Positions 5,910 through 60,056 of a DNA stretch of 64,000 bases are shown in pieces; position 1 is the stretch's first letter, and each line of letters opens with the position of its first letter. The notes under the pieces were generated by a model. It was not told the DNA's origin. It made no database searches and saw only the letters and a list, made by a program, of their open reading frames with translations. The stretch is from Escherichia phage UGJNEcP3. A program made the translations under genes and the position numbers. The stretch lies in the sequence record OV876907; one strand, given 5' to 3'.

Positions 5910-7499
5910 ATGATTAACAAATTGGAACTTAGTGAGTTACCATTTGTTGACGGCGTACCTGATGCTCCTCAAAAGCGTATCCAATGGATACGCGAGGGTG
6001 ATTGTATGTCTGCAGCAAAAACAAAATACGGCAATGAAGGTAATTTGAACGCTGCTGCTTTAGGAGTTCAGAAAAACGTTGAAGCTCTTGATGCGAATGA
6101 TTTGAAAACCGCAGATAAAGTTAACGAACTGGTAGAAAACGTTAATAATATCAATGATGCCTTAGAAATGGCTACGGATATTTCCGCCATCCAACAAATT
6201 GAGAAAAACCGTGTTGATATCGTAGAGCTTAAGAGAGTAGAAGGCGAAACCACTGTCGGGCTAAACAATTTAACCATAAATTTAGACCACCTAAAAGAAG
6301 ACGTTGGTTACCATGACCCTTTACAAGACGGCCCGTATTTAACTGTACGTGAAAATATTGTTCTTCTTAAAACCGAAATAGGTCATTATGAAAACCAGGA
6401 TATAAATGGTAATCCGTTGCCTCCTGGTGAAACCAGTGAAGCCACCGGTATGAAACGACGCATCATTGATAATACCACTCAATTGGTCGACCATCGTCTT
6501 CGCATTGATACCCTTGAAAGGAATTATGAAGATTCTGACGTCGGGCAACTAGGTATTAAATTAAATGAAATTCGTGCTGAATTAGGTCCTCATTCCGATA
6601 CGGTAGGTAAACAACAGGCTTATACCCGAATTTCTGTATTAGAAACGGCTGCAATTAATTTCAATACATCTATCGACGAAATTAAGGCTGATATTGATTT
6701 CTCCGGTATGCCTATAAAGGACCGAGTAACTACTTTAGAAAGCAAAACTCTTACCCTAGAAAATTCGGTCACCGTTGATTTAAAACCTCGTGTAACATCA
6801 ATTGAAACCCAAATAGGTTCTGAATCAACTCCTACTTCTATTAATGGACGTTTAAGCGGTCTTCGTACTGATGTAAATGACCTTAAAACCATAGTGGGTG
6901 TTAGTTCAAGTGATGGCTTACGTTTCCAAGTTACTGATATCAACCGCCGTTTAGGTAGTGAAGTATCTCCGGCAGCTGGGACCATTAATAAGCGTTTAAA
7001 TGACGTTATTATCCAAGCAAACCAATCTACTTCATCTATCCAGGATATTCAAGTAGAAATTGGAAATAACCAATCCGGTATTAAGGGTACTTTACTTAAA
7101 CTCACCAATAAGGTTGACGGGACAAACCCTAACGGTACTACTGTAGAAGAACGTGGTCTTATTAACGCGGTTACTTCTTTAGAAACCCAGATGTTAGGTA
7201 AGTTGAATGATGCCCCTTCCGATGGTAAGCTTTATGCTCGTCGTAATGCTACGTGGACCGAAGTTCCTAACGTTTCTACTGAAATAGGGACCGTTAAAGC
7301 TGATTTAGTTGTTACCGATGGTAATGTAGCAGCTTTAACTTCTAGAGTTACTACAGCAGAAGATAAAATCACTGCATTAGAAACTGAACTTGCTAAACGT
7401 CCGCCGGTGGCTCCAGTTGCTGATGGACTTCCGTATGTTCTGGTTGATAATGCGTGGGTGCTATTGTCAGATTTTGTGACTTTAAACCCGGGACCATAA
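5910..7499 (+). CDS. wac: fibritin (whisker/neck fibre) Wac
   Basis: ORF track; long coiled-coil-like repetitive sequence; position between 12 and 13; followed by terminator hairpin. Confidence 0.85.
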   Translation: MINKLELSELPFVDGVPDAPQKRIQWIREGDCMSAAKTKYGNEGNLNAAALGVQKNVEALDANDLKTADKVNELVENVNNINDALEMATDISAIQQIEKNRVDIVELKRVEGETTVGLNNLTINLDHLKEDVGYHDPLQDGPYLTVRENIVLLKTEIGHYENQDINGNPLPPGETSEATGMKRRIIDNTTQLVDHRLRIDTLERNYEDSDVGQLGIKLNEIRAELGPHSDTVGKQQAYTRISVLETAAINFNTSIDEIKADIDFSGMPIKDRVTTLESKTLTLENSVTVDLKPRVTSIETQIGSESTPTSINGRLSGLRTDVNDLKTIVGVSSSDGLRFQVTDINRRLGSEVSPAAGTINKRLNDVIIQANQSTSSIQDIQVEIGNNQSGIKGTLLKLTNKVDGTNPNGTTVEERGLINAVTSLETQMLGKLNDAPSDGKLYARRNATWTEVPNVSTEIGTVKADLVVTDGNVAALTSRVTTAEDKITALETELAKRPPVAPVADGLPYVLVDNAWVLLSDFVTLNPGP

Positions 7500-10170: not shown

Positions 10171-12480
<2,310 letters not shown>

Positions 12481-12509: not shown

Positions 12510-14492
12510 ATGGCTTTATTATCACCGGGCATTGAGCTCAAAGAAACGTCCGTACAGAGTACTGTCGTTCGTAACGCAACGGGTCGTGCAGCGCTGGTTG
12601 GTAAATTCCAGTGGGGCCCTGCTTTCCAGGTAACTCAGATTACTAATGAAGTTGAACTGGTCGACTTATTTGGAGGTCCTAATAACGAAGTTGCTGATTA
12701 CTTCATGTCGGGTATGAACTTCCTCCAGTATGGTAACGACCTTCGTACTGTTCGTGTTGTTAACCGTGAATTCGCTAAAAACGCGTCTCCGGTAGCAGGT
12801 AACGTCCAAACCACTATTACTACTGCAGGTTCTAACTATGCGGTAGGCGATAAAATTAATATCAAATATAACCAGACTGTTGTTGAATCTGAAGGTCGTG
12901 TAACTTCGGTTGATACCGACGGTAAAATTATGTCGGTGTTTATTCCTACCGGTAAGATTATTTCTTATGCTCGTTCTGTCAACCAATATCCAGACCTTGG
13001 CCCTGCGTGGACGGCCGAAGTAACTTCTGCCTCTTCAGGTGTTTCTGGTACTATTACTGTCGGTAAAATCGTAACCGATTCTGGTATTCTGTTGACTGAA
13101 GCAGAGAACAGTGAAGAAGCTATTACTTCCCTGGAATTCCAAGCATCTCTTAAACAGTTTGCTATGCCGGGCGTAGTTGCTCTTTATCCTGGTGAAATTG
13201 GCAGCACCTTAGAAGTTGAAATTGTTTCTAAAGCAGCTTATGATGCCGGTTCTACTAAAATGTTGGATATTTATCCAAATGGTGGTTCCCGTGCTTCTAT
13301 TGCCAAGGCAGTATTTAACTACGGCCCACAAACAGATGACCAATATGCAATTATTGTTCGTCGTGACGGTGCTATCGTAGAATCCGTCGTACTTTCTACC
13401 AAAGAAGGTGAAAAAGACGTTTATGGTAATAACATTTATCTCGATGACTATTTCGCTAAAGGCACTTCCAACTATATTTTTGCTACCTCTTTGAATTGGC
13501 CTAAAGGCTTCAGTGGTATCATTAATCTGATGGGCGGTGTTTCTGCTAACGATAAAGTTACTGCAGGTGATTTGATGCAGGGTTGGGATTTGTTTGCCGA
13601 TCGTGAAGCACTCCATATTAACCTTTTGATTGCCGGTGCTGTTGCCGGTGAAGGTGATGAAGTTGCTTCTACCGTCCAGAAACACGTGGTGAGCATCGCT
13701 GATGAACGTCAGGATTGCTTGGCATTTATTTCTCCTCCTAAAGGACTGTTGGTTAACGTTCCGTTGACTCGTGCAGTAGATAATCTTATCGACTGGCGTA
13801 CCGGTGCAGGTACTTTCGATGCCAACAACATGAACATTAGCACCACTTATGCTGCTATTGATGGTAACTATAAATATCAGTATGACAAATATAATGACGT
13901 AAACCGTTGGGTGCCTCTGGCCGCTGATATGGCTGGTTTGTGTGCACGTACTGATGATGTTTCTCAGCCTTGGATGTCTCCGGCGGGTTATAACCGTGGC
14001 CAGATTCTTAACGTTCTGAAATTGGCAATTGAACCACGTCAAGCTCAACGTGACCGCATGTACCAAGAAGCTATTAACCCAGTTGTTGGTTTTGCTGGTG
14101 GCGATGGTTTCGTATTGTTTGGTGATAAGACTGCAACTAAAGTTCCATCTCCGATGGACCACATTAACGTTCGCCGTCTGTTCAACATGCTTAAGAAAAA
14201 TATCGGTGATGCCTCTAAATATAAACTGTTTGAATTGAACGACAGCTTCACTCGTTCAAGCTTCCGTATGGAAGTTTCTCAGTACTTAGATGGTATTAAG
14301 GCACTTGGTGGGATTTATGAAGGACGTGTGGTTTGTGATACTACGGTGAACACCCCTGCGGTTATCGACCGTAACGAGTTTATTGCTAATATATACATCA
14401 AACCGGCGAGATCGATAAATTATATCACTCTTAATTTCGTGGCTACTTCTACCGGTGCAGATTTTGACGAGTTGATTGGACCACTAGTTTAA
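12510..14492 (+). CDS. 18: tail sheath protein gp18
   Basis: ORF track; TATAAATA at 12473-12480 upstream; size and position as T4 gene 18. Confidence 0.92.
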   Translation: MALLSPGIELKETSVQSTVVRNATGRAALVGKFQWGPAFQVTQITNEVELVDLFGGPNNEVADYFMSGMNFLQYGNDLRTVRVVNREFAKNASPVAGNVQTTITTAGSNYAVGDKINIKYNQTVVESEGRVTSVDTDGKIMSVFIPTGKIISYARSVNQYPDLGPAWTAEVTSASSGVSGTITVGKIVTDSGILLTEAENSEEAITSLEFQASLKQFAMPGVVALYPGEIGSTLEVEIVSKAAYDAGSTKMLDIYPNGGSRASIAKAVFNYGPQTDDQYAIIVRRDGAIVESVVLSTKEGEKDVYGNNIYLDDYFAKGTSNYIFATSLNWPKGFSGIINLMGGVSANDKVTAGDLMQGWDLFADREALHINLLIAGAVAGEGDEVASTVQKHVVSIADERQDCLAFISPPKGLLVNVPLTRAVDNLIDWRTGAGTFDANNMNISTTYAAIDGNYKYQYDKYNDVNRWVPLAADMAGLCARTDDVSQPWMSPAGYNRGQILNVLKLAIEPRQAQRDRMYQEAINPVVGFAGGDGFVLFGDKTATKVPSPMDHINVRRLFNMLKKNIGDASKYKLFELNDSFTRSSFRMEVSQYLDGIKALGGIYEGRVVCDTTVNTPAVIDRNEFIANIYIKPARSINYITLNFVATSTGADFDELIGPLV

Positions 14493-17762: not shown

Positions 17763-18190
17763 TGTTCCTTATCCCTGATGATTACGAATTAACTCTAGAA
17801 AGCGTAGAGGCCAAAATTCCAGAAGCACAGGGACGTTTTGCTGCTCTTTCTGAAGCGCTCGAGAAAAGCGATATAAATAATCTTGTAGAGAACATGATTG
17901 CTGAAGGCGATATCGAATGTGCTATCGCTCTTGGTTCTTTAAATGAATCAATGGCTCTTAACGAATTTATCGTTAAACACGTTTCCTCTAAAGGTGTGCT
18001 TACTCGTACTAAAGATATTAAAACCCGTCAGCGTAACGCATTCCAAACGACGGGTTTATCTAAAGCAAAGCGCCGTCAGATTGCTCGCAAAGCATCTAAA
18101 ACCAAACGTGCTAATCCATCTACTCAAGTACGTGCCGAACGTAAGCGTAAGAAAGCCCGTTCTAAACGTAAAGCTTTTGGACTTAACTAA
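17762..18190 (+). CDS. 68: prohead core protein gp68
   Basis: ORF track; basic C-terminus; position between 67 and 21. Confidence 0.8.
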
Positions 18191-18855: not shown

Positions 18856-19671
18856 ATGCTTAAAGAACAACTGATCGCCGAAGCACAGAATATTGATGCT
18901 TCCGTTGCTCTTGACAGTATTTTCGAATCAGTTAATATTTCTCCGGAAGCAAAAGAAACTTTCGGCACTGTATTCGAAGCTACCGTCAAGCAACACGCCG
19001 TGAAACTGGCTGAATCTCACATCGCTAAAATCGCTGAAAAAGCGGAAGAAGAAGTCGAGAAAAATAAAGAAGAAGCTGAAGAAAAAGCTGATAAGAAAAT
19101 CCAAGAAGCTGCCGGTCGTTTCCTTGACCACGTTGCTAAAGAATGGATGGCTGAAAACCAGCTGGCTGTTGATAAAGGTATTAAAGCCGAACTGTTCGAA
19201 TCCATGTTGATGGGTATGAAAGAACTGTTTGTTGAACACAATGTGGTTGTTCCAGAAGAAGCAGTAGATGTTGTTGCTGAAATGGAAGAAGAACTCCAAG
19301 AGCAGAAAGATGAAACCGCCCGTCTGTTCGAAGAAGTTGGTAAGCGCGATGCGTATATTAATTACGTACAGCGTGAAGTTGCTGTTACGGAAGCAACTAA
19401 AGACCTGACCGAATCTCAAAAAGAAAAAGTCAGTTCTCTGGTAGAAGGCATGGATTATTCCGATGCATTCGGTAAAAAAATTGGCGCTATTGTTGAAATG
19501 GTTAAAGGTCAGTCTGACGTTGAAAACCCAATCACCGAAGCCGCTATAAATAAAAATGTAGACGATGCTGCGGCACTGAATTACATTTCAGAAGCAGTTG
19601 AAGAAAAAGGCGCTAAGCCTACCCTGTCCTTCGCGGACCTGTCTGCAATCGCAGCATCACGAATTTCTTAA
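18856..19671 (+). CDS. 22: prohead core scaffold protein gp22
   Basis: ORF track; Glu/Lys/Ala-rich coiled-coil-like sequence; TATAAATA at 18821-18828. Confidence 0.88.
   Translation: MLKEQLIAEAQNIDASVALDSIFESVNISPEAKETFGTVFEATVKQHAVKLAESHIAKIAEKAEEEVEKNKEEAEEKADKKIQEAAGRFLDHVAKEWMAENQLAVDKGIKAELFESMLMGMKELFVEHNVVVPEEAVDVVAEMEEELQEQKDETARLFEEVGKRDAYINYVQREVAVTEATKDLTESQKEKVSSLVEGMDYSDAFGKKIGAIVEMVKGQSDVENPITEAAINKNVDDAAALNYISEAVEEKGAKPTLSFADLSAIAASRIS
19545..19552 (+). promoter_or_regulatory. candidate late promoter TATAAATA inside gene 22 (possible gene 23 promoter)
   Basis: Exact TATAAATA about 140 nt upstream of gp23 ATG; no consensus box in the short 22-23 spacer. Confidence 0.3.
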
Positions 19672-21301: not shown

Positions 21302-21568
21302 CTATGCAATCTTAACTCGGCGGTTGATGATATCACGGAAGTCGATACGATTTTCTTGGATTTTCAGCCAGTTACCAGATTTGTCTTTGGTATGGGCAGA
21401 GTATTCACCGTTCCACCAGAAGTCAGTTTCATAAGCCAGAGCTTCGTATTTCTTAACCAATGCATTAACTGCATTACCGTTAGGATTGGTACCGAATTTT
21501 TCTACCAGAGCTTTGATGTCTTTGTCAAGGTTAGAAAGCGTGGTACGGATAAAGTTTAATTTGTTCAT
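21302..21568 (-). CDS. hypothetical protein, minus-strand early-type gene between 23 and 24
   Basis: ATG 21568 preceded by GAGGAG and a GTTTACA-N17-TACTATAG promoter; track start 21583 lacks an RBS; not recognised. Confidence 0.6.
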   Translation of the reverse strand: MNKLNFIRTTLSNLDKDIKALVEKFGTNPNGNAVNALVKKYEALAYETDFWWNGEYSAHTKDKSGNWLKIQENRIDFRDIINRRVKIA

Positions 21569-21633: not shown

Positions 21634-21641
21634 TATAAATA
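21634..21641 (+). promoter_or_regulatory. T4-type late promoter TATAAATA (gene 24)
   Basis: Exact TATAAATA 29 nt upstream of gp24 ATG. Confidence 0.6.
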
Positions 21642-25277: not shown

Positions 25278-25949
25278 TTATTTTAAAGTGACAAAAGATG
25301 AGTTACGAGTTTCTCGTACTAGAACAGACCCATTACGATTGATGTAATAAATCAAACTGAATAGAGTTTGGTGCGCAGTGGGATGTGGGAAAGCAGTTGG
25401 ACGTTCTTTCCAATCTGGAGTCTCGGCAATCCACTGATAAATCCACCAAGGAACGGTGCAATAACCTGGGTTCTTACCGATAAGCAAAAGATTAGGACTG
25501 AAGTTTTCAGATAAAGAGAATACAGGTTTTTCAGATTCGATAACCTTGGTTACAGCCTCTTTGAATTTCTCTTCGTCAAATGGAACATCCTCTTCAATAA
25601 TCTCTACCTTAGGAAGTTCGGCTACCTCTATTACTTCAACAACTGCCTCAGGGGCATCGAACAACAGGGTTGCTTCTTCTTTAGCTGGTTCTACACCTTC
25701 GATAAAATCGTTATCACCGGTGAGTTCGTCAGCAGCATCAATCAAATCAGAAATAGACAAACCTTCAGTTTCTGGGAGTGGTTCGTCAGCCAAGGCTTTA
25801 AGGCCCTCAGAGATATCGATAATCAAATTATCAAACGAACGGGTTTTCTTAAGTTTTAAACCGAACTGTTCGCCGTATTCGATTAACTTAGCTTTAGCTT
25901 CTTTTTTATCTTCGAGTGCACGAAGCTCTTCAATATATTGAGTATCCAT
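25278..25949 (-). CDS. inh: prohead protease inhibitor Inh
   Basis: ORF track; acidic protein at the T4 inh position between hoc and uvsW; minus-strand TATAAATA upstream. Confidence 0.7.
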   Translation of the reverse strand: MDTQYIEELRALEDKKEAKAKLIEYGEQFGLKLKKTRSFDNLIIDISEGLKALADEPLPETEGLSISDLIDAADELTGDNDFIEGVEPAKEEATLLFDAPEAVVEVIEVAELPKVEIIEEDVPFDEEKFKEAVTKVIESEKPVFSLSENFSPNLLLIGKNPGYCTVPWWIYQWIAETPDWKERPTAFPHPTAHQTLFSLIYYINRNGSVLVRETRNSSFVTLK

Positions 25950-25968: not shown

Positions 25969-25990
25969 TATAAATATAACTATATTTATA
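25969..25990. promoter_or_regulatory. divergent late promoters: TATAAATA for uvsW (plus) and for inh (minus)
   Basis: TATAAATA at 25969-25976 (plus) and its reverse complement at 25983-25990, each about 30 nt from its ATG. Confidence 0.55.
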
Positions 25991-26004
25991 ACTGAGAATT
26001 ACTT

Positions 26005-27501
26005 ATGCAAATTCAAGTACATTTTGATAATTTTAGTCATGTCCGTATTGAATGCGATGAATCCACATTCTACGAACTCAGAGACTATTTTAGCTTTGAA
26101 GCTGATGGATATAAATTCAACCCTAAATTTCGTTATGGGCAATGGGATGGACGTATTCGTCTTCTAGATTATAATCGTAAACTTCCTTATGGATTGGTTC
26201 CTCAAATTAAAAAGTTCGCTGAACAATTTGAATACTCTCTGTGGATTGACCCACGTATTCTTGAACAGGAAGATATTTCTCGTGAGGATTTTGACTCATG
26301 GGTGGCTTCTCAAGAAATTTATTCAGGGTCTACCAAGATTGAGCCTCATTGGTATCAGAATGAAGCCGTATACAACGGCCTGACAAAACGTCGTGCAATT
26401 CTGAATTTGCCTACATCCGCAGGTAAATCATTGATTCAGGCACTCCTAAGTCGATATTACGTTGAGAACTACGAAGGTAAAATCCTTATATTAGTTCCTA
26501 CTACTGCACTTGTCGACCAGATGATTAATGACTTCATCGATTATCGATTGTTCCCTAAAGCAGCAATGCTTGGTATTCGTTCAGGTACTGCTCGTGATTC
26601 GGATGCAATGATTTATGTTTCAACCTACCAAACGGCAATTAAACAACCTAAAGAATGGTTTGCTCAGTTCGGTATGTTTATGAACGACGAATGCCATTTG
26701 GCTACAGGTAAATCTATTTCTACTATCATCGAAGGCCTAACCAACTGTATGTTTAAATTCGGTTTGTCTGGTTCTTTAAAAGATGGTAAAGCTAATTTAA
26801 TGCAATATATGGGTTTGTTTGGTGATGTGTTTAAGCCAGTATCCACCTCCCAGTTAATGGAAGAAGGACAGGTTACTGACCTTAAAATCAACAGTATCTT
26901 CCTTCGATACCCAGACGAATTCACGGTTAAGATGAAAGGTAAAGATTACCAATCAGAAATAAAGGTCATTACTAAGGCTACTCGCCGTAATAAATGGGTT
27001 GCTAATTTAGCTGTTAAACTCGCTAAGAAAGAAGAGAACGTATTCCTGATGTTTAAAAACATCGAGCACGGTAAAACTCTTTTTGAAATGGTTAAAGAGC
27101 AACATAAAGAAGTTTATTACGTATCAGGTGAAGTTAATACCGAAACGCGTAATGCTCTGAAAGTAATGGCGGAAAATGGTAAGGGTATTATTGTTGTGGC
27201 AAGTTATGGTGTGTTCTCTACTGGTATTTCCGTTAAGAACCTTCACCACGTTGTATTTGCTCACGGCGTAAAATCTAAAATCATTGTTCTGCAAACAATT
27301 GGGCGTGTACTCCGTAAGCATGACAGCAAACAGGTGGCCCAAGTCTGGGACCTCGTGGATGATATGGGAGTCCGCCCTAAATCTAAAGATTCTAAAAAGA
27401 AATATGTTCATTTAAATTATTGTCTGAAACACGGATTGGAACGTATTCAACGGTACGCAGACGAGAAATTTAATTATGTCATGAAAGAGGTACAGCTTTG
27501 A
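26005..27501 (+). CDS. uvsW: UvsW DNA/RNA helicase
   Basis: ORF track; helicase motifs PTSAGKS and DECH; TATAAATA at 25969-25976. Confidence 0.9.
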   Translation: MQIQVHFDNFSHVRIECDESTFYELRDYFSFEADGYKFNPKFRYGQWDGRIRLLDYNRKLPYGLVPQIKKFAEQFEYSLWIDPRILEQEDISREDFDSWVASQEIYSGSTKIEPHWYQNEAVYNGLTKRRAILNLPTSAGKSLIQALLSRYYVENYEGKILILVPTTALVDQMINDFIDYRLFPKAAMLGIRSGTARDSDAMIYVSTYQTAIKQPKEWFAQFGMFMNDECHLATGKSISTIIEGLTNCMFKFGLSGSLKDGKANLMQYMGLFGDVFKPVSTSQLMEEGQVTDLKINSIFLRYPDEFTVKMKGKDYQSEIKVITKATRRNKWVANLAVKLAKKEENVFLMFKNIEHGKTLFEMVKEQHKEVYYVSGEVNTETRNALKVMAENGKGIIVVASYGVFSTGISVKNLHHVVFAHGVKSKIIVLQTIGRVLRKHDSKQVAQVWDLVDDMGVRPKSKDSKKKYVHLNYCLKHGLERIQRYADEKFNYVMKEVQL

Positions 27502-28280
27502 ATTATCAGAAAATTTACGATGATTTAATAGAGAATGCTAGGTCCAGAGGATGGACCAAAGCTACTGCACCCTGTAAAATCGAAATTCATCATATTATTC
27601 CTAAGTCGATAGGTGGTTCCGATGACCCTAACAATTTAGTTGCATTGACTATTAGGGAACATATTTTGGGTCATATAATCTTGGCTAAAGCTCAAGGTGG
27701 AAAATTATGGCGTGCTGCATTTGGTATGACATGCGGTAAAAGATTAAATGAGATAAGCTCTAGGTCTATTTCCATTTTAAAAGAAAATGCTTCTAGATTA
27801 ATAAGCGAAGCCATGATTGGTAATACAAACGGCTCTTATGAATGGACCGATGAACGGAGAGAAATACACCGAAAAGCTATGGCTAAAGTTGGATTAACAG
27901 AAGCCAAATTAAAAGCTTTAGAAAAGGCTTGGACCAAAAATAAAGGTTCCAAGCAATCCAAAGAGACCATAGCCAAAAGGTCCAAAGCAATGAAAGGATT
28001 TACCCCTGTTAAAGCCGGAGATTATGAAACGTGTTCAAAAGCTGGCAAAGCCAATAAAGGTGTAAAGAAATCATTTAGGACTGAGGACCATTCTAAAAAT
28101 TGGCAAGCTACTTTGGCTAAGAAATATCCACACTGGTTAATGTACGATGAGCTTAAAGAGCTTTGGATAAATACAGGAAAGCTTAAAGTTGGTAAATTTA
28201 CAAAAGAAGCCATTAAAGCTGGTTATCCTAATGTGCATTACGGTAAAATGGTTACCAAATTTTTCGAGGAAATATTATGA
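27498..28280 (+). CDS. free-standing HNH endonuclease (putative homing endonuclease) inserted between uvsW and uvsW.1
   Basis: Classic HNH motif EIHHIIPKSIGGSDDPNNLVALTIREH; no in-frame ATG near 5' end, so TTG 27498 after GAGG is the likely start, overlapping uvsW stop. Confidence 0.7.
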   Translation: MNYQKIYDDLIENARSRGWTKATAPCKIEIHHIIPKSIGGSDDPNNLVALTIREHILGHIILAKAQGGKLWRAAFGMTCGKRLNEISSRSISILKENASRLISEAMIGNTNGSYEWTDERREIHRKAMAKVGLTEAKLKALEKAWTKNKGSKQSKETIAKRSKAMKGFTPVKAGDYETCSKAGKANKGVKKSFRTEDHSKNWQATLAKKYPHWLMYDELKELWINTGKLKVGKFTKEAIKAGYPNVHYGKMVTKFFEEIL

Positions 28281-28504
28281 AAACCTTTAAAGAAGTTATT
28301 CAAGAAGCATCTATTGAAAGCTTCATGGCTAAAATTGGTTCTTGTCAGACTATGGATGGTCTGAAGGAATTGGAAAAGTATTACAAAACTCGTAGTAAGG
28401 AAGCTGAACTTCGTGATTCGGACGATATTAGCGTGCGTGATGCATTGGCTGGTAAGAGAGCTGAATTGGAGTCGATGGACGACGAGGAAGAGGAAGATTT
28501 CTAA
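28277..28504 (+). CDS. uvsW.1: UvsW.1 small acidic protein
   Basis: ORF track; 75 aa with acidic DDEEEEDF tail; ATGA overlap with upstream stop. Confidence 0.75.
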   Translation: MKTFKEVIQEASIESFMAKIGSCQTMDGLKELEKYYKTRSKEAELRDSDDISVRDALAGKRAELESMDDEEEEDF

Positions 28505-28505
28505 A

Positions 28506-28534
28506 CAAAAAAGGCCCAACCTTTCGGAAGGGCC
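28506..28534 (-). terminator. terminator at the end of the uvsY-side minus-strand unit
   Basis: Minus-strand GC stem with internal loop followed by TTTTTTG; lies between uvsW.1 stop and the small minus-strand ORF. Confidence 0.5.
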
Positions 28535-28563
28535 AATAACCATAAATGGCTATACACACTAGA

Positions 28564-28731
28564 CTAAAGTAGTAATTGGGTTTCGTTCAGCTGTTCTTCA
28601 GTGTTTTCCGTAACCGGCAAGCTTTGAACGTAATTATAACATGAGCCCGGATGAACCGGACCTTTTTCTGTTTCAACAACCAATGCAGCATCGATTGGAG
28701 TTTTACAGACAACACAAATCTTATCTGACAT
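28564..28731 (-). CDS. small CxxC protein (about 55 aa), hypothetical
   Basis: Below ORF-track cutoff; hand translation MSDKICVVCKTPIDAALVVETEKGPVHPGSCYNY...; AAGGAG RBS 6 nt upstream; terminator follows; coordinates approximate. Confidence 0.45.
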   Translation of the reverse strand: MSDKICVVCKTPIDAALVVETEKGPVHPGSCYNYVQSLPVTENTEEQLNETQLLL

Positions 28732-28759
28732 GATTGTCTCCTTAGTTTAACTTACATAT

Positions 28760-28864
28760 CTATTTATTACTTGCTAAAGCGGCATTAATGAATTCTTGGA
28801 GTTTGTCCATCCGATCTTTAGATGGTTTAGGGCATTTATTGATGACTGGTTTACGATAACTCAT
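28760..28864 (-). CDS. very small ORF (about 34 aa), hypothetical
   Basis: Hand translation MSYRKPVINKCPKPSKDRMDKLQEFINAALASNK; ATG overlaps uvsY stop (ATGA), AGGTGA RBS; coordinates approximate. Confidence 0.3.
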   Translation of the reverse strand: MSYRKPVINKCPKPSKDRMDKLQEFINAALASNK

Positions 28865-29298
28865 TTTTCACCTGCTTCAAATTTCCTGAGCTCCAACATA
28901 TTCTTTAGCGAGAACCCTCTAGCTTTTACTGCATCAAGTGCTGAACTACAAAAGTCTTGTAATAAAGCCCAATACTGAATTGATGTGTCGATTTTAATTA
29001 CACTAGAATCCGCAGCCATAACAGTCTTTAATTCAGACTTCTCGTACTGGTCCATACAAACCTCATCACCAGGCTCTCCACGTCCCGTGTAGAAATCTAA
29101 TCGCTTCTTAAGAGAGGTCTTTTTCTGGATTTCTAATCGCATTATCTCTTTCTTACAATTCGTATACAGCCTTAGCCATTTGCTGTGCAGCAAAACGTTG
29201 TTCTGTACTTCATACTGTAAACGAGTCCCATCAATCTTTAAATCCTCGTCTAATGCATCTTGGAATGATTCCAATTTATATTCAATCTCTTTACTCAT
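28861..29298 (-). CDS. uvsY: recombination mediator UvsY
   Basis: Internal ATG 29298 (MSKEIEYKL...) preceded by AGGAAA; collinear with T4 UvsY (TKLQYE, KSE.KTV); track start 29331 rejected. Confidence 0.85.
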   Translation of the reverse strand: MSKEIEYKLESFQDALDEDLKIDGTRLQYEVQNNVLLHSKWLRLYTNCKKEIMRLEIQKKTSLKKRLDFYTGRGEPGDEVCMDQYEKSELKTVMAADSSVIKIDTSIQYWALLQDFCSSALDAVKARGFSLKNMLELRKFEAGEK

Positions 29299-29316
29299 AG
29301 CACGTTTCCTGTTGAA

Positions 29317-29345
29317 TAACCATAGGACCATTATACACTATTAAT
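29317..29345 (-). promoter_or_regulatory. candidate promoter for uvsY (TATAAT -10 with TGCTG upstream)
   Basis: On minus strand: TTGCTG, about 15 nt, then TATAAT, about 20 nt upstream of uvsY ATG; reminiscent of T4 middle promoters; approximate. Confidence 0.3.
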
Positions 29346-29356
29346 TTGAACAGCAA

Positions 29357-29746
29357 TTAACCACTCTGTGAGAGCTGGATTCTAATTTGCTCTAATGTAT
29401 CTGGGTCATCAACTATACTAAACTGAACCGTTACTATAATCGAGTTATCATCGTACACAGGAGTGACACCTACAGCCAAGGCAGAGATTCGAGGCTCGAA
29501 GTTCCGCACTGCGGAAACTATATTACGCTTAATAGTATCCGTGATTAATGGAGTAATATTCTCAAACAATTGGTTACTGATGTCACAACCAAATTCAGGC
29601 ATAAAAGGGCGTGAACCTTTGCGAGTAGTAATAATGCCTAACAAACTATTTTTAACTGCACGAGCACCTGTAGCTTTAGCGACGTCTCTATTCCAAGACG
29701 TCCTCATTTCAGGGTCTAAATCTGAATACATTTTATTGATATTCAT
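29357..29746 (-). CDS. 25: baseplate wedge subunit gp25
   Basis: ORF track; TAATG overlap with gp26; size and position as T4 gene 25. Confidence 0.85.
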   Translation of the reverse strand: MNINKMYSDLDPEMRTSWNRDVAKATGARAVKNSLLGIITTRKGSRPFMPEFGCDISNQLFENITPLITDTIKRNIVSAVRNFEPRISALAVGVTPVYDDNSIIVTVQFSIVDDPDTLEQIRIQLSQSG

Positions 29747-30369
29747 TACATCACCTTAAAGAACTCTTTAAGTCCCTCAATAACGTGGACGGTATGTTCA
29801 CCACATTCACAAGAAATAGGTATAGCCAAAATAGGCTTAGGGGCAACTAGTGCATCATAAACTTCTTTTATGTCTTTTTCTGTTATCACAGAATAAAGGT
29901 CATCAAGTTCCGCATCGCTTAAATCGGAAAGAAAAAGCTTTTCGCCTGCAGAAGTTAAAATATAATCGATACACCCTGCGACCGTCATAGCTCTATTTTT
30001 ATCTTCAAAGAGTTTAGGATATCTGAAAATAATTTTAAAGTTGCCAAAGTCTTTAATAACATCCGGCTCTTTACCTAATGTTGCGCGAGTTAGTGTCATA
30101 GGAACAACCTGTGAGCGACCACAACTACAACTCCACTCACGTTCTATATTCACTTCAGCTAATGAATGGGCCCACAGGTTTATCACCAGGAGCTCAGATT
30201 CTTGCTTGTTTAAATCACGAGCATCTGTGCAATTCGAAATGAGTTCATTGATAAAGGACTCTATTCTGCCTTCTAATTTAGCTTGGAGCAAGTCCTTATA
30301 CTCTCTGAGGGTAAATGCTCTGCATTTTATGGTTTTGTTTTTAATTTTTACGTCAAAAGTATAATTCAT
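29746..30369 (-). CDS. 26: baseplate hub subunit gp26
   Basis: ORF track; AAGGAG RBS; divergent from gene 51 as in T4. Confidence 0.85.
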   Translation of the reverse strand: MNYTFDVKIKNKTIKCRAFTLREYKDLLQAKLEGRIESFINELISNCTDARDLNKQESELLVINLWAHSLAEVNIEREWSCSCGRSQVVPMTLTRATLGKEPDVIKDFGNFKIIFRYPKLFEDKNRAMTVAGCIDYILTSAGEKLFLSDLSDAELDDLYSVITEKDIKEVYDALVAPKPILAIPISCECGEHTVHVIEGLKEFFKVM

Positions 30370-30387
30370 TGTCTTCTCCTTTAAGCT

Positions 30388-30399
30388 TATTTATAAATA
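30388..30399. promoter_or_regulatory. palindromic divergent late promoter TATTTATAAATA (gene 26 minus, gene 51 plus)
   Basis: 12-bp palindrome holding overlapping TATAAATA boxes on both strands between divergent genes 26 and 51. Confidence 0.5.
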
Positions 30400-30419
30400 C
30401 ATCAATAAGAGGACACCCT

Positions 30420-31172
30420 ATGGCTAATATAGTACGTTGTGAAATGCCTGATGGAGTCCACCGATTTAAACCTTTTACAGTAGCTGATTATCGTGATTTT
30501 ATTTTGATTCGAAATGACATGAATAATAAATCACCTGAAGAGCAAAAACAAATTTTAGATGAGTTACTGGAAGAATACTTCGGTGAATATCCTATGTCAT
30601 GGCGTCCGTACATGTTCATTGAACTTTACACGTCATCACTCGGCAAGACTAAAATTCCTATCCGATATACATGTAGCAAGTGTGAAAAGGATAGACAAGT
30701 TTTATTTAATTTGAAACAGACCAAGTTAGATAACCCTACAATCGAAGTGGCAGGCTTGAAGCTAACATTCAAATTTCCGGAAATAGAATATCACGACAAA
30801 TCTGAATTGATTTTGAACACCCTCCAAACCGTAGAAGATGAAAACGGAAAATATAATTGGTCAGACCTTTCTGAAGAGGACCAATTAGCCGTAATAGATG
30901 CTATAGACTTATCCACTTTAGAGGATATAGTTAAACAAACTAGCCCTATTCATTTCGAACTCAAATATGGATGCTGTAATCGTAGAACAATTACGTATAC
31001 CGATATTTTAGAGGTGTTTAAGCTTATAGTCAATCCGGATGAGATATTTTTATTCTACCAAATAAACCATTTACTGGTAAAGAACAATTATTCATTAGAA
31101 AGCATTATGCAGATGATTCCAATCGAACGCGGTATTGCTTTGTCTTTGGTTGAAAAGGACCTTAAGAAATGA
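30420..31172 (+). CDS. 51: baseplate hub assembly catalyst gp51
   Basis: Internal ATG 30420 ([12 protein letters not shown]..., as T4 gp51 MANIIRCELPNG) after AAGAGGA and TATAAATA at 30392-30399. Confidence 0.85.
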
Positions 31173-36943: not shown

Positions 36944-36973
36944 ATAGTACCACATCCTTGTGGTGTTGTAAAC
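36944..36973 (-). promoter_or_regulatory. early-type promoter GTTTACA-N17-TACTAT
   Basis: Upstream of the 36625-36915 gene; -35 overlaps the Alt-A stop codon. Confidence 0.5.
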
Positions 36974-39096
36974 TACATTTTGAATTTATTTGATAAAGAA
37001 GAGATATCCAAAGACGCGGCAAGGATTTCCATAGCTTCATTGCTTTCAGAAATGGATTCACTAATCAAGAACTGACTGAATCCATCCATCAGGCGAACTT
37101 CGCCAGTTTCCATCAAATGGTCACCATCGTAAACAGATTCGCTGAGCTCTGAAGGAGGTGTTACGGTAGCTTCCATAAGGTATTTGTGAGATACTCTATC
37201 ATTCATGGCAAAAGACGCTACTTTATCAACCTTCAACAATAATCCACGCGGAAGGATAATTTCTGCTTCTTCAGCATATTCTGTAAGGTCGCCAGGAGCG
37301 ATAACTTTAACTGCTTCAGCACCTCGAATAACCATACCAATTTCAGCAATTCTATCCGCAGGGCCTTCAGGTGCAATTGGATTACCAAACTCGTCTTCTT
37401 CCCATTCCACCTCTTCGTCATCGACTTCACCCACATCAGATGAACTACCACTAGCCAATTTAAACAACTCATCGGCTGAGGATAAAGAACCTTCATCACC
37501 AACAAAAACTGCTTGGTTGTCGAGGGCCATATAATTTTTACCAAATTCGCCAAAGATGTTAGGCTTTAATGAGGCCGACACAAAGTTCTTAAAGTAAAAT
37601 GTTTTGTTATCGATATTATGACGCAGAATTTTGTATGGTAAATCCTGACCACGATACAAAATAGTACCCTTAGGAAGTTTAATACCCTTAGTAAATGCTG
37701 AGTCTAAATCCTTAATCAATTTAATAGCCGTTGTATTGTTTTCGGATTCAGGTTTACCTAAAAGGAATAAGTTCATAGGAGCATATTCAGCTGCGCAATA
37801 TTCAATAATAGCATTGCTTTCGTCTTTGGTTAAGTCCTTAGGTTTAATGAGCTCACCTGAATAAGCATATGCATCACTAATAGAATCGTTAATTAGTTTA
37901 TAAACGGCTTCCATAGCGAAAGCAATTCGAGAGGCCTTTTCTGAAGGGGAGCCTTTAAAACGAGCGCTCAAGTTATTAACAATTTTCTTAATAATATCCA
38001 GACTATTGGTGGTATTGATTTGCGAAAGGCCACTTAAAAGTCTATCGACTTCTGTATTAAAAAATGCCATATTATTAGAGTAAATTTCAAACCCTTGTTT
38101 ATCTCTATTAGCATAATTTAGTTTAAATTTACTATCAGTCATTAAAGCGTGTGTGAGAGCAATAGTGTATCTAAAGTTGGCAAGGTCCTCGCTCTTAGAT
38201 TTAAACTGAGAAGCCTGGCGCATTTTGGTAATAGCACCTTTTTTAAAGTTCTGACTAATCTGTTCAATACCTTCATTCTCAGGGCCTTCAGCCGTGTGAA
38301 CCGGTACAGAAGCTTCAAACTCGTTATAAACCTGCAATTCTTTAGGGGACAAAGTTTCAGGCTCAGCAGTAGAATACTGCGCGGCCGCTGCCATACGACG
38401 CGAAATCTTAGTACGAGTAATGACAGCCTTATCAGTACGTTTCTCTTCAACTTGTGCAATAGATGCCGCTACGGCTTCTACTTTACTTACGGCCTGGCCG
38501 GTTTTCTTAGAAACATACACTTCGCCAACTTTAGACTCGACTTTAGTATAAAGATTGGCATCAATTTCAGGCATACCCTTGATATCTTCAATATTAGCAC
38601 CACGACGTACTAAAAGAACGTAGGTATGTTTTCCGCTGAATTGGAACATGTGGTCAACAACTTTAAACTTACCACCGGTACGGGCCATAGCCAAACGAGC
38701 TAATACGCGCTGAACGGTAGGGCCTTTACCTTTCATTTTCTTAGTAGGGAAACGGAATAAAACCGCGTCCATTTTAAGTTTGTTTATTTGTTCATATATG
38801 GTATCGAAAATGGTGTTCAGTGTACCGAGTGGATCGGTACCCAAACCACCCTTGAGTTCTGCCGGAGCGCCTTTAGCAGATAAACTCATTAAGATAACAT
38901 GGACGTACTTATCGCCATTTTTAACCATCTTAATAGCGTCGCCTTCAGACGCATAAGATACCATACGCGCTACTAAATTGTCATTACCAGGAGCATGTAC
39001 CGCAAAAATCTGCGGTACGCCTGAGCCAGGTTTAAGATTTGTTACCGGATAGTTTTTAGCGGAATCGCTATCAAAAACTTCGTTTAAATTTTCCAT
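36973..39096 (-). CDS. alt: Alt-like ADP-ribosyltransferase, paralogue A (third in transcription order)
   Basis: N-terminus MENLNEVFDSD...; ART motifs YRGQ / VSASL / EIILPRG in the C-terminal third; central segment unlike the other two copies. Confidence 0.8.
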   Translation of the reverse strand: MENLNEVFDSDSAKNYPVTNLKPGSGVPQIFAVHAPGNDNLVARMVSYASEGDAIKMVKNGDKYVHVILMSLSAKGAPAELKGGLGTDPLGTLNTIFDTIYEQINKLKMDAVLFRFPTKKMKGKGPTVQRVLARLAMARTGGKFKVVDHMFQFSGKHTYVLLVRRGANIEDIKGMPEIDANLYTKVESKVGEVYVSKKTGQAVSKVEAVAASIAQVEEKRTDKAVITRTKISRRMAAAAQYSTAEPETLSPKELQVYNEFEASVPVHTAEGPENEGIEQISQNFKKGAITKMRQASQFKSKSEDLANFRYTIALTHALMTDSKFKLNYANRDKQGFEIYSNNMAFFNTEVDRLLSGLSQINTTNSLDIIKKIVNNLSARFKGSPSEKASRIAFAMEAVYKLINDSISDAYAYSGELIKPKDLTKDESNAIIEYCAAEYAPMNLFLLGKPESENNTTAIKLIKDLDSAFTKGIKLPKGTILYRGQDLPYKILRHNIDNKTFYFKNFVSASLKPNIFGEFGKNYMALDNQAVFVGDEGSLSSADELFKLASGSSSDVGEVDDEEVEWEEDEFGNPIAPEGPADRIAEIGMVIRGAEAVKVIAPGDLTEYAEEAEIILPRGLLLKVDKVASFAMNDRVSHKYLMEATVTPPSELSESVYDGDHLMETGEVRLMDGFSQFLISESISESNEAMEILAASLDISSLSNKFKM

Positions 39097-39099
39097 TAT

Positions 39100-41148
39100 T
39101 TACCCTTGGGTGAATTTTTCTGGGGTTTCGTCAAAATTAATACATGAAGCTAAAATAGGCATTATATCCACCTTGGTCGATTTGACGAATGAATCAAAAG
39201 ACACACGGTTGTCGGTCTCTGTTTCTACGCCTTGGTAAACAACCAATTCGCCGGTTTCCATCAATGCATCACCATCATAGATAACCGCATTTTCTGCTAG
39301 TTGGTCTGTGGTCTGGATATCAGCTTCCAATAATTTGGTGTTGTAGTTTCCTTTATATGAGGCATCTGTAATTTTAGTAATCTTAACAGTAGTTCCACGT
39401 GGAAGAATAACCTCTTGTTCTGTTGGAGAACCTGACAATTCACCGGGCACAATTACGTTAATAGAGTCTGCACCGGAAATTTTCCAACCGATGTTCATCA
39501 TTGTATTTTCGGAACTCGTCAGCATACTTGGAAGAACAATTTCATTATTGCCTTGGAAAGATGTCCCAGCGCGATAGTCCTGATGAACTGCGGCCATTGC
39601 GACGTTTGATACCCAGCCGCCAAAGATAATCGGCTTAAGGGACGTTGATACATAGTTCCTGAAATAAAACAATTTTGAGTGTTTGATTTTATCAAAAGTG
39701 TTAACATTTAAATATTGACCACGCCAAAGTGTAATATCAGGTGGCAATTTATGGCCAATTTCAAATGCCGCATCCATATCATTAATTACTTCAATTACAC
39801 GATAACTATCAATAAATTCTGCATCCTCTTCATAATAATTACCCAACAAATAATTATTAACATCGGTATAATATTGGCCACAATAAGAAGAAATAGCCTC
39901 ACGCTGCCCATACTCAAATCGATTATCGCTATAACTGGCTGTAAAATGCATAACACTTTCTGACGCTTCATTAGCAAAGTCGGTAACAGCAGCACTTATA
40001 CGTTGAGCATACTCTTGTTCCCAAAGCTCTGCTGCATATTCTGCCGCATCCATATTAGGAGGAGCCTCATTCATTTTTCTTTCGATAAATGCAGCTTTGC
40101 GAAGGTTAAGAACCTCTGCACATGATTCGGCAAAAATCTGCATCTGCTTCATACTGCCGACAGGAGCACGTTTAAGTTCACGATGCATACGGTTAAAAAT
40201 TGGGTCAGAGTCTTCGACTCGAATTTCTTCTTTCCAAACACCGTTTGCTCGCATAGCCATATCTGCCGCGCGCATACGCTCCATAGTATTCGTTTCAGAA
40301 GGCTGAATAAAAATTTCCAGTTCTTCATAATCATCGATAAGTTCTGCTGTTGCTGGGGCACTAAATTTTGATGCCTCTGCATCAATCTCATTCCAACCTT
40401 CCGGAACTTCATCTCGAGGAGAATACTGGGCTGCGGCTACAGCACGCCTAGAAATCTTGGTAGTAGTAATAACGGCCTTATCCGTACGTTTTTCTTCGAC
40501 TGCCGCTATACTAGCAGATAGTGCTTCTATTTTGGTTACCGATTGGCCTGTTTTCTTGGATACATAAACCTCACCAACTTTAGACTCAACCTTAGTGTAA
40601 AGGTCTGCATCAATTTCAGGCATACCTTTTATGTCCTCAATATTAGCTTGTTTACGGACCAGTAAAACGTATGTATGTTTGCCTGTAAATTGATACATAT
40701 CATCGACAACTTTAAACTTGCCGCCAGTACGAGCCATCGCCAAACGTGCCAATACACGTTGAACAGTAGGACCCTTACCTTTCATTTTCTTGGTAGGGAA
40801 CCGGAAAAGAACTGCATCCATTTTAAGTTTGTTTACTTGTTCGTATACAGTATCAAAAATGGTATTCAGCGTACCAAGTGGGTCAGAACCTAACCCACCT
40901 TTCAACTCGGCTGGGCTACCCTTAGCAGACAAACTCATCAAAATAACATGAACATATTTGTCACCCGGCTTAACCATTTTAATAGCGTCTCCTTGAGACG
41001 CATAAGATACCATACGAGCAACCAGATTATCATTACCTGGTGCTTGGATAGAGAAAATCTGTGGAATACCGGGACCCGGTTTAAGATTTGTTACTGGATA
41101 GTTTTTAGCGGAATCACTATCAAAAACCTCATTTAAATTTTCCATCAT
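39100..41148 (-). CDS. alt: Alt-like ADP-ribosyltransferase, paralogue B
   Basis: N-terminal about 230 aa near-identical to paralogue A; motifs WRGQ / VSTSL / EVILPRG; start may be the second ATG (41145). Confidence 0.8.
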   Translation of the reverse strand: MMENLNEVFDSDSAKNYPVTNLKPGPGIPQIFSIQAPGNDNLVARMVSYASQGDAIKMVKPGDKYVHVILMSLSAKGSPAELKGGLGSDPLGTLNTIFDTVYEQVNKLKMDAVLFRFPTKKMKGKGPTVQRVLARLAMARTGGKFKVVDDMYQFTGKHTYVLLVRKQANIEDIKGMPEIDADLYTKVESKVGEVYVSKKTGQSVTKIEALSASIAAVEEKRTDKAVITTTKISRRAVAAAQYSPRDEVPEGWNEIDAEASKFSAPATAELIDDYEELEIFIQPSETNTMERMRAADMAMRANGVWKEEIRVEDSDPIFNRMHRELKRAPVGSMKQMQIFAESCAEVLNLRKAAFIERKMNEAPPNMDAAEYAAELWEQEYAQRISAAVTDFANEASESVMHFTASYSDNRFEYGQREAISSYCGQYYTDVNNYLLGNYYEEDAEFIDSYRVIEVINDMDAAFEIGHKLPPDITLWRGQYLNVNTFDKIKHSKLFYFRNYVSTSLKPIIFGGWVSNVAMAAVHQDYRAGTSFQGNNEIVLPSMLTSSENTMMNIGWKISGADSINVIVPGELSGSPTEQEVILPRGTTVKITKITDASYKGNYNTKLLEADIQTTDQLAENAVIYDGDALMETGELVVYQGVETETDNRVSFDSFVKSTKVDIMPILASCINFDETPEKFTQG

Positions 41149-43236
41149 TTACCCTTGGATGAATTTTTCTGGGATGCCATAGAGGTCTATGCATGAAGCC
41201 AAAAGAGACAGTACATCAACCCGTGTAGATTTAACAAATGAATCAAAAGATACAGGGCTTTCGGAAGTATCGAAATCATCTTGATATACGACCAACTCAC
41301 CGGTTTCCATTAGTACGTCACCATCATATACCACAGATTCTTGAAGCTCATCTGATGTCATAACTTCAGCTTGAATAAATTTATTGTTAGACACCGTCCC
41401 GGAACCAGTATTGGCTGATGCATCCACGATTTTATCTATTTTTACAAGTAGCCCGCGTGGTAAAATTATTTCCTTTTCGTTGGCATGCATGCTTAATTGG
41501 CCAGGATAAATCACGTTAACCTTATGAGCGCCACTAATAGCCCAGCCAACATCAACACGGATTTGATCCGGCGCATACATATGTGTACGCACTTGACTAT
41601 CAGAGATGGTAACGCCTTCGTCATTATTATCAATGTTTAATTCTTTTCGAACATCATCGGAAGCAAGACCAATAGCCGCATTCTCTTTAAAGCCACCAAA
41701 AATGATTGGAGCTAATGAGGTTGAAACATAGTTTCTAAAATAGAATACCTTATTTTTAACTAATGCTTCGTAGATAGGCGCGCGCAAAGATTGTGCTCTA
41801 TAAACCATTATTCCTTCAGGTAAACGGTCTCCATTTTTAAAGGCAGAATCCATTCCATCAATAGCACGTTTAACTTCGCTTTCGTCCAAAACTTCATAAA
41901 AGCCTGGTTTATAACGACCAAGAAGGACATTGTTAATATCAATATAAGCTGAAGAGGCGTATTCTCTGATAGCTCGTTTTTCTGCAAGTGTATATTGTTT
42001 AGGGTCTCGAGATGTTGTTATATTAAGAATTTCTCTAGTTGATTCTATAGCGTATGTATACATTATCTTAGACAAGAATGAAGACTTACGTTGTTTCCAT
42101 ACTATTTCACTGTTTTCATTCAATATCTCTTTTTCCAAATGGAAATTGTCTTTTCTATAATCTTCAAACCAATCACTTTTAATAGATTCTGCGATTTCAT
42201 TAGCAACTTCAACAAAGGCAGCTAAAGCTTTAACTGACGTGGTTTTTTCATTTTTAATTTTTTTGACAAATGTTTCTAAAGAAGAGTTAATTTTATCACC
42301 GTAAGAAACTTCATCCGCAAATTTAAATGAATCATCCATAGTATTATAAATTTTAAAATCAATAGCCGTAGCCAACTTATCCTTAGCTGTTTCAGATGAT
42401 AACGATAGTTCAACTTCGGCCGCTTGTGGAATTAATTCTGCCGTAGCAGGCGCACTGAACTCACTAGCAGTTTGCTCGTATTTCTGAAACAATTCACCTT
42501 CATTACGATCTGATTCTAATGACTGGCTTGCTGCAATAGCACGTCGCGAAATCTTAGTCTTGGTTATAACCATTTTATCGGTGCGACGTTCTTCAACCTT
42601 AGCAATACTGCCGGCAATAGCAGTTTCTTTAGTAACCTGCAGGCCTTCTTTTTTAGAAATATAAACTTCACCAACATCAGAATCTACCTTAGTGTATAAT
42701 TCGGAATTAATTCCTGGCATACCCTTAATATCTTCAATGTTAGCTTGTTTACGAACTACTAGGATGTAAGTATGTTTACCGGTAAATTGGTACATAGCCG
42801 GAACTACTTTAAAACGTCCACCTGTTTTCTGTGCTACCAAACGTTGGATAATCCGTTGAACAATAGGCCCTTGACCTTTCATTTTCTTAGTAGGGAAACG
42901 GAACATCACTGCATCCATACGAAGCTTTTTAACTTGGTCATAAACCACATCAAAAATAGTATTAATCGCATCTACGGGAGTAGGGCCAAGGCCACCCTTA
43001 AGTTCGGCTGGAGTACCTTTAGCTGAAAGGCTCATAAGGATAACGTGGGCATATTTATCGCCTAATTTAACTTGTTTAATAGCATCACCTTCAGAAGCGT
43101 AGGATACCATACGCGCTACTAATTGGGATTCTGCATCGCCAATCTTCCAAATCTGAGGTACTTTAAGTTTTGGGTTCAAGTTTACTGTAGGCAGAGTGCC
43201 TTCGGACTCAAACACTTCATTTAATTGTTCGGTCAT
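41149..43236 (-). CDS. alt: Alt-like ADP-ribosyltransferase, paralogue C (first in transcription order)
   Basis: N-terminus MTEQLNEVFESE...; motifs YRAQ / VSTSL / EIILPRG; C-terminal tail shared with paralogue B; AAGAGGAA RBS. Confidence 0.8.
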   Translation of the reverse strand: MTEQLNEVFESEGTLPTVNLNPKLKVPQIWKIGDAESQLVARMVSYASEGDAIKQVKLGDKYAHVILMSLSAKGTPAELKGGLGPTPVDAINTIFDVVYDQVKKLRMDAVMFRFPTKKMKGQGPIVQRIIQRLVAQKTGGRFKVVPAMYQFTGKHTYILVVRKQANIEDIKGMPGINSELYTKVDSDVGEVYISKKEGLQVTKETAIAGSIAKVEERRTDKMVITKTKISRRAIAASQSLESDRNEGELFQKYEQTASEFSAPATAELIPQAAEVELSLSSETAKDKLATAIDFKIYNTMDDSFKFADEVSYGDKINSSLETFVKKIKNEKTTSVKALAAFVEVANEIAESIKSDWFEDYRKDNFHLEKEILNENSEIVWKQRKSSFLSKIMYTYAIESTREILNITTSRDPKQYTLAEKRAIREYASSAYIDINNVLLGRYKPGFYEVLDESEVKRAIDGMDSAFKNGDRLPEGIMVYRAQSLRAPIYEALVKNKVFYFRNYVSTSLAPIIFGGFKENAAIGLASDDVRKELNIDNNDEGVTISDSQVRTHMYAPDQIRVDVGWAISGAHKVNVIYPGQLSMHANEKEIILPRGLLVKIDKIVDASANTGSGTVSNNKFIQAEVMTSDELQESVVYDGDVLMETGELVVYQDDFDTSESPVSFDSFVKSTRVDVLSLLASCIDLYGIPEKFIQG

Positions 43237-48779: not shown

Positions 48780-48787
48780 TATTTATA
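48780..48787 (-). promoter_or_regulatory. candidate late promoter TATAAATA (rIII, long leader)
   Basis: Reverse complement of TATAAATA abutting gp31 stop; about 139 nt upstream of rIII ATG. Confidence 0.3.
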
Positions 48788-59928: not shown

Positions 59929-60056
59929 AATTTCCTCAATATGTTAGGTTCTACAATTATTCTATCATAGAACCTGTTAAGCATGGACTGATATTTATAG
60001 AATGAAATTCAGTCCGACCATAATAACCAAAAACAGAGTACAGATTATTTGAATTT

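Follow-up and report, generated by a model that had tools for sequence, protein, structure and literature searches.

Two pairs of divergent late genes in a stretch of Escherichia phage DNA raise the question of how two promoters and two ribosome-binding sites can be accommodated where only 50-55 bp separate one start codon from the other. The stretch (record OV876907; 64,000 nucleotides (nt), called the window throughout) matches at 100% the record OV877765.1 of Escherichia phage UGJNEcP4, its position 1 being position 87102 of that record. The phage belongs to Dhakavirus within the Tevenvirinae and has JS10 and JS98 as near relatives. The two junctions in question lie between genes 26 and 51 and between inh and uvsW. 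At each of them two T4-type late-promoter boxes stand on opposite strands, as a 12-bp perfect palindrome in the first case and as a 22-bp near-palindrome in the second. Very probably the boxes make up two compact promoter pairs, four functional late promoters that depend on gp55, with one on each strand at either junction. The core claim, that each divergent junction has two late promoters, is well supported by comparison with relatives and by expression data from T4.

Paired late-promoter boxes at two divergent junctions

A late promoter of the T4 type has an 8-bp box about one helical turn upstream of the start (PMC2988020, PMC1524935). The box sought was TATAAATA, taken as positions -13 to -6, with the start set 6 nt downstream of it; A and T are both common at -13 (PMC1524935, PMC2988020). 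The four start sites given here are therefore predictions from box position (Table 1).

Between genes 26 and 51 the 12-mer TATTTATAAATA carries a box on each strand with a 4-nt overlap, exactly in the sequence and at the coordinates given in an earlier note on this DNA. Because the shared TATA is self-complementary, an overlap of 4 bp is the tightest packing of two opposite consensus boxes. The boxes end 18 nt before the start codon of gene 26 and 20 nt before that of gene 51. For gene 26 this predicts a leader of 13 nt, AAAGGAGAAGACA, with GGAG at 30379-30376 (+4 to +7), and for gene 51 a leader of 15 nt with AAGAGGA at 30407-30413. The two predicted starts lie 23 bp from each other and point outwards, so that the promoters overlap but their predicted transcripts stay clear of one another.

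In the inh/uvsW gap the two boxes stand face-to-face on either side of the spacer TAACTA, at the positions and on the strands noted earlier. They had been described as 7 nt apart, which is the difference between coordinates; six bases lie between them. The whole element consists of two arms of 10 nt, complementary at 100%, around a centre of 2 nt. From box end to start codon there are 28 nt on the uvsW side and 33 nt on the inh side. The predicted 5' ends of the two transcripts overlap by 6 nt over the spacer, and each leader opens with the complement of the other promoter's box.

The earlier note had proposed one late promoter per strand at both junctions, and this we retain. It had also called both pairs back-to-back and both sets of transcripts crossing. 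The first term suits only 26/51, where the upstream ends of the boxes overlap, inh/uvsW being face-to-face; the second suits only inh/uvsW. Its estimate of about 12 nt for the gene 26 leader was close, but the leader is not exceptionally short: distances across the family are alike, and 26/51 leaders of 11-19 nt are normal.

Chance is excluded as the origin of the boxes and of their pairing. Exact boxes number 16 in the window against 6.1 expected; 12 of them lie outside coding sequence, although non-coding DNA makes up only 4.6% of the window, and all 16 share the orientation of the genes around them. The intergenic boxes end 18-63 nt before a start codon, with one exception, 138 nt before rIII. 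Opposite-strand pairs at most 30 nt apart occur twice against 0.036 expected per window, a count that no simulation out of 1000 (first-order Markov) reached. The exact 12-mer alone is expected 0.03 times per window.

We considered the rule that every divergent junction has paired boxes and dropped it. The window's third divergent junction (21568|21671) separates a small hypothetical open reading frame (ORF) at 21302-21568(-) from gene 24 and has a plus-strand box only, at 21634-21641. Pairing thus tracks both neighbours being late genes rather than divergence itself.

Each of the four boxes precedes, at short distance and on its own strand, an orthologue of a T4 late gene, and the genome also encodes parts of the matching transcription machinery. 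A homologue of the late sigma factor gp55 is found at 41343-41900 of OV877765.1 (phrog_234, E 2.7e-68; it gave no Pfam match, and the assignment comes from PHROGs instead). A homologue of the sliding clamp gp45 is encoded too (phrog_223, E 6.2e-78), and clamp loader genes are annotated.

Conservation of the two elements

The earlier note had asked whether relatives conserve the exact palindrome of the 26/51 junction. They do. A gp51 profile scan of IMG/VR gave 47 loci with 33 distinct upstream regions, reaching down to 47% gp51 identity, and the exact 12-mer is present in 29 of the 33, with all 12 columns invariant. It is identical in T4, RB69, JS10, pKp20, EcS1, Cronus, Moon and Acj61, and spans eight genera, among them Mosigvirus, Jiaodavirus, Kagamiyamavirus, Roskildevirus and Moonvirus, and Acinetobacter phages (Acj61). 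In a palindrome-anchored alignment of 28 distinct contexts, the 12 palindrome columns are again 100% invariant, against 28-60% identity in the flank columns. The distance from palindrome to start codon is 16-22 nt for gene 26 in 25 of the 28 relatives, and 16-24 nt for gene 51. Beyond the 12-mer, the only feature common to both arms is an A at offset 6 (81% of relatives), which coincides with the predicted +1.

The exceptions are four regions of two kinds. Two RB49-like regions have TATTTTATAAATA, longer than the 12-mer by one inserted base, and next to it ACTAAATA, a further candidate for a minus-strand box. The other two, from Aeromonas 44RR-like phages, have a shortened 10-mer palindrome, TATTTAAATA. 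Relatives in which the paired promoters vary include W115 (L005, about 6300-6340) and Aeromonas phages (L012, L059 and L061).

For the inh/uvsW junction, a UvsW profile scan gave 77 loci with 54 distinct upstream regions. The face-to-face arrangement of two boxes around six bases (box-N6-box) is near universal in Tevenvirinae-like sequences (UvsW at least 65% identical); in three lineages the gap between boxes is 10, 11 or 12 nt instead of 6. Across 27 distinct contexts with box-N6-box, the plus-strand box is invariant and the minus-strand box on the inh side varies only at -13 (T in 78%, A in 22%), a known tolerated variant. In the same contexts the spacer follows the pattern T-R-N-N-T-R, with T at positions 1 and 5 in 100% and purines at positions 2 and 6, so that a pyrimidine at -1 and a purine at +1 result on both strands. 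This is the spacer expected if transcription on both strands starts exactly 6 nt past the box. In JS10 (stretch L002, about 3216-3237) the unit is a perfect 22-bp palindrome with the spacer TAATTA. Where a seg-type endonuclease gene is inserted upstream of uvsW, as in T4, the box unit remains beside inh.

Outside the Tevenvirinae the geometry changes at this same junction: Acinetobacter phages and the Slopekvirus/Pseudotevenvirus group have back-to-back pairs here, and in one contig (L107) the 12-mer palindrome itself lies between inh and uvsW. Taken together, the invariance of the 12-mer, the spacer rule and the switching of geometry at one junction show that the pairing of boxes is under selection, and not just the single boxes.

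In Aeromonas phage avDM9-HANS (L012, 10115-10144) the annotated starts of uvsW and inh are only 28 nt apart, and the plus-strand box ends 7 nt before the ATG. The annotated uvsW start is probably wrong, since related contigs suggest a GTG start further downstream.

Relation to T4 and other phages

The paired promoters are orthologous to an arrangement long known in T4 and already predicted in RB69, and as such are known T4 biology. Between T4 genes 26 and 51 stands the identical 12-mer (positions 7451-7462 of the T4 stretch L003), flanked by the same genes in the same orientation, 26(-)/51(+), and by short leaders with GGAG on both sides, as here. The distances to the start codons differ (18 and 20 nt in the window, 21 and 17 nt in T4), as do the leader sequences. 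For the T4 baseplate cluster, overlapping divergent late promoters were reportedly mapped by Scarlato, Storlazzi, Gargano and Cascino in 1989.

The T4 inh/segE-uvsW junction likewise has the face-to-face box-N6-box with the same plus-strand box. On the inh side T4 and RB69 have the A(-13) variant AATAAATA, whereas the window has the consensus. In T4, segE separates the promoter from uvsW; in the window uvsW follows directly, and an HNH gene is found between uvsW and uvsW.1.

In a time-resolved transcriptome and proteome of T4, the genes inh, segE, uvsW, 25, 26, 51, 27 and 28 are all classed as 'late-RNA_late-Protein' (PMC9697503 supplement). With late genes on either side, the two orthologous T4 sites are thus transcribed late from both strands. 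A late promoter drives expression of T4 UvsW (Derr and Kreuzer 1990, cited in PMC3016281), and a late promoter has been described upstream of T4 inh. In the phage of the window itself we infer the use of both strands. No promoters are annotated for the T4 region concerned in the GenBank records NC_000866 and AF158101.

For RB69, which has the same 12-mer as the window between genes 26 and 51, overlapping late promoters on opposite strands were predicted there as Pl:118620(+) and Pl:118672(-) (Nolan et al. 2006, PMC1524935, Additional file 5). Near the inh/uvsW junction the RB69 list has a plus-strand promoter only (Pl:114694), against the two boxes seen here.

Similar palindromes occur in Aeh1 and in rearranged relatives of T4. 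Aeh1, which has its own late consensus CTAAATA (PMC1524935), carries a palindromic back-to-back TATTTAGCTAAATA at the divergent genes 4|48, and Slopekvirus and Pseudotevenvirus carry a palindromic back-to-back TATTTACTAAATA at the divergent genes 27|28. Consensus, flanking genes and overlap length in Aeh1 and the rearranged relatives all differ from those in the window.

Alternative explanations

Two points weigh against four working promoters. Not all of the late boxes listed for T4 are proven to be active in vivo (PMC2988020). The exact palindrome is not indispensable, since RB49-like phages have broken the 12-mer and yet keep gene 26.

The first of these points also favours the alternative that a single box works at each site, the opposite one being a passive by-product of an A/T-rich and partly self-complementary consensus, and that gene 26 or inh is transcribed from elsewhere. 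Since TATA is its own complement, a second box needs just four further matching bases, and in bacteria divergent promoters are known to arise incidentally from sequence symmetry (PMC12825309). We nevertheless consider this explanation improbable. All 12 positions are invariant in the 28 contexts, and four of these bases belong to the minus-strand box alone. The inh/uvsW boxes do not overlap, yet both are conserved, and their sole variation is the functional exchange of T and A at -13. In T4, each pair consists of two late genes. Moreover, a source elsewhere is hard to find: the palindrome holds the sole minus-strand late-type box upstream of gene 26, there is no other that could serve gene 26 or inh, and the next exact one is 18 kb away. 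No match to a sigma-70-type promoter was found in the inh/uvsW or the 26/51 gap, an absence that is weak evidence. The flanks upstream of the boxes, looked at for a -35 element, are poorly conserved at both junctions.

A second alternative, which we regard as less probable still, is that the palindromes are kept mainly as sites for a dimeric DNA-binding regulator of the flanking late genes, for example one like DsbA, the promoter role being secondary or additional. Both elements are palindromic, and T4 DsbA is reported to bind with low affinity to A/T-rich sites overlapping two late promoters (PMC2988020). However, the conserved positions match the two 8-bp boxes exactly, and the middle of the 22-bp element varies, often departing from the palindrome. 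The two geometries, a 4-bp overlap and a 6-bp gap with opposite order of the boxes, offer no common dimer site, and other genera swap geometries at the same junction, which a promoter pair would tolerate and a fixed operator would not.

Least credible is a neutral relic: the 12-mer would date from an inversion or duplication by which the paralogues 26 and 51 (see below) came to stand head-to-head, as they do in the Tevenvirinae, and as a unit would have no function today. Such a relic would decay like the flanks, yet the 12-mer is 100% conserved. Past it the two arms share 34% identity where composition predicts 29%, on which grounds we also rejected a recent inverted duplication, and an origin by inversion is compatible with a present promoter function, for which it is no substitute.

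Proposed mode of action

If the boxes work as four late promoters, they would be the target of the host's RNA polymerase bound to the phage sigma factor gp55 and to gp33, with activation by the gp45 sliding clamp. Two such promoters and two ribosome-binding sites fit into the short gaps because a late promoter consists of its 8-bp box only and has no -35 element. The 12-bp palindrome would then be a complete bidirectional promoter, arguably the smallest known, and at inh/uvsW the facing boxes would share their spacer as -5 to +1 of both promoters.

In the activated late complex gp45 is at the upstream end, and the footprint is extended by 13 bp. Because two polymerase complexes would overlap on the same DNA, probably only one direction fires at a time. 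In vitro, the position of the nick on one strand or the other determines the orientation of the gp45 clamp, and this in turn sets the polarity of the activated promoter. Each time a pair fires, the direction may therefore depend on how the arriving gp45 is oriented, and the 12-mer would offer a clean substrate for asking whether it does.

The transcription units begun at the uvsW and gene 26 promoters likely end at a GC-rich hairpin between the converging uvsW.1 and uvsY.-2 (Table 1). The A-run before its stem on the plus strand is a T-run after the stem on the minus strand. Nolan et al. 2006 (PMC1524935) report a bidirectional terminator here that is conserved among T4-like phages. The hairpin was not listed by a simple terminator scan.

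Bacterial bidirectional promoters provide the closest general parallel. They arise from symmetry of the -10 element, and polymerase bound one way excludes the other (Warman et al. 2021; Warman et al. 2026, PMC12825309); spacings of about 10, 18 and 23 bp between divergent starts are common among them (PMC12825309). With boxes overlapping by 4 bp and predicted starts 23 bp apart, the 26/51 pair falls within the overlap criterion of Warman and Grainger, whereas inh/uvsW, with separate, face-to-face boxes and crossing predicted starts, falls outside it and is better described as a pair of overlapping face-to-face divergent promoters. The housekeeping sigma factor sets the phage elements apart, for they have the gp55 consensus, apparently no -35 element and predicted activation by a clamp, and late proteins are encoded in both directions. 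The 26/51 pair would work like a bacterial bidirectional promoter but is not a member of the sigma-70 class.

What the present comparison adds to the T4 work is modest and lies in the comparative numbers, namely the 29 of 33 regions with the 12-mer, the spacer rule and the switching of geometry between genera. It shows the classic T4 regulatory layout intact in a Dhakavirus, which can be used with confidence for annotating late transcription units in T4-like genomes, and it yields precise start-site predictions (Table 1).

Paralogy of gp26 and gp51

Both gp26 and gp51 match Pfam PF12322. Aligned with each other they give 21% identity in BLASTP (E 2e-5) and, in a profile-profile comparison with hhalign, a probability of 99.4% (E 3.4e-21). 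Judged by these alignments they are paralogues, and both in the window and in T4 they flank the palindrome head-to-head. Slopekvirus and Pseudotevenvirus have them in tandem on one strand in the order 51-26 (stretches L007, 5700-6994, and L013, 5700-6993). A review of the T4 tail lists gp26 and gp51 both merely as 'hub assembly chaperone' and does not mention their relationship.

It is conceivable, if rather unlikely, that the palindrome marks an ancient inversion junction, at which a tandem 51-26 became head-to-head with a bidirectional promoter in common, and that clamp orientation now balances the dosage of 26 and 51 transcription. Transcripts on the 26 side and on the 51 side would then stand in a ratio fixed by that of the clamp orientations arriving at the site, and so by the strand on which nicks or primer ends occur. 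Dosage for the assembly of the baseplate hub would in this way be balanced in a replication-coupled manner, and the inh/uvsW pair would be balanced likewise.

Genes and further features of the window

For gene names we relied on how the identical record OV877765.1 and JS10 are annotated, and on family searches; these bear out the names inh, uvsW, 26 and 51 used in the earlier note. Coordinates are collected in Table 1.

Table 1. Promoter elements, hairpin and flanking genes at the two junctions (window coordinates).
Feature	Coordinates	Strand	Remarks
12-bp perfect palindrome TATTTATAAATA	30388-30399	both	two opposite-strand late boxes sharing central TATA
Late box, gene 26 (and downstream 25, uvsY)	30388-30395	-	predicted start A 30382
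Late box, gene 51 (and 27-28-29-48-54)	30392-30399	+	predicted start A 30405
22-bp near-palindrome TATAAATA-TAACTA-TATTTATA	25969-25990	both	two late boxes facing across 6-bp spacer
Late box, uvsW (and HNH endonuclease gene, uvsW.1)	25969-25976	+	predicted start A 25982; predicted leader 23 nt
Late box, inh (and hoc, possibly downstream genes to rnlB)	25983-25990	-	predicted start A 25977; predicted leader 28 nt
Shared spacer TAACTA	25977-25982	both	-5 to +1 of both promoters, read oppositely
GC-rich hairpin GGCCC...GGGCC	28507-28534	both	between converging uvsW.1 and uvsY.-2
inh (inhibitor of prohead protease)	25278-25949	-	phrog_1051, E 1.5e-90
uvsW helicase	26005-27501	+	UvsW_N, E 6.7e-44
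Gene 26 (baseplate hub protein)	29746-30369	-	Pfam T4_baseplate; OV877765.1 and JS10 annotation
Gene 51 (baseplate hub assembly protein)	30420-31172	+	Pfam T4_baseplate; OV877765.1 and JS10 annotation

The HNH homing-endonuclease gene (27498-28280(+); Pfam HNH, E 5.9e-6) sits exactly between uvsW and uvsW.1 and is lacking in JS10. Its counterpart insertion in T4 is the GIY-YIG gene segE, between the late promoter pair and uvsW. Mobile endonuclease genes seem to have landed repeatedly in the neighbourhood of uvsW.

Among the 16 exact boxes, four lie within coding sequence, at 11971-11978, 13869-13876, 17872-17879 and 19545-19552, all on the plus strand. They are in genes 17, 18, 68 and 22, each in sense orientation, and may be internal late promoters. 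The box at 11971 is within the large terminase gene, and that at 19545 lies 140 nt upstream of gene 23. Two further exact boxes, at 48780-48787(-) and 59992-59999(-), are found in non-coding DNA of a mostly early and middle, minus-strand region; one is the box upstream of rIII mentioned above and the other lies 63 nt upstream of nrdA.

At 36973-43236(-) the window holds three successive genes of about 2.1 kb, each annotated as an Alt-like RNA polymerase ADP-ribosyltransferase. Relative to T4, with its single alt gene, this is a tandem triplication.

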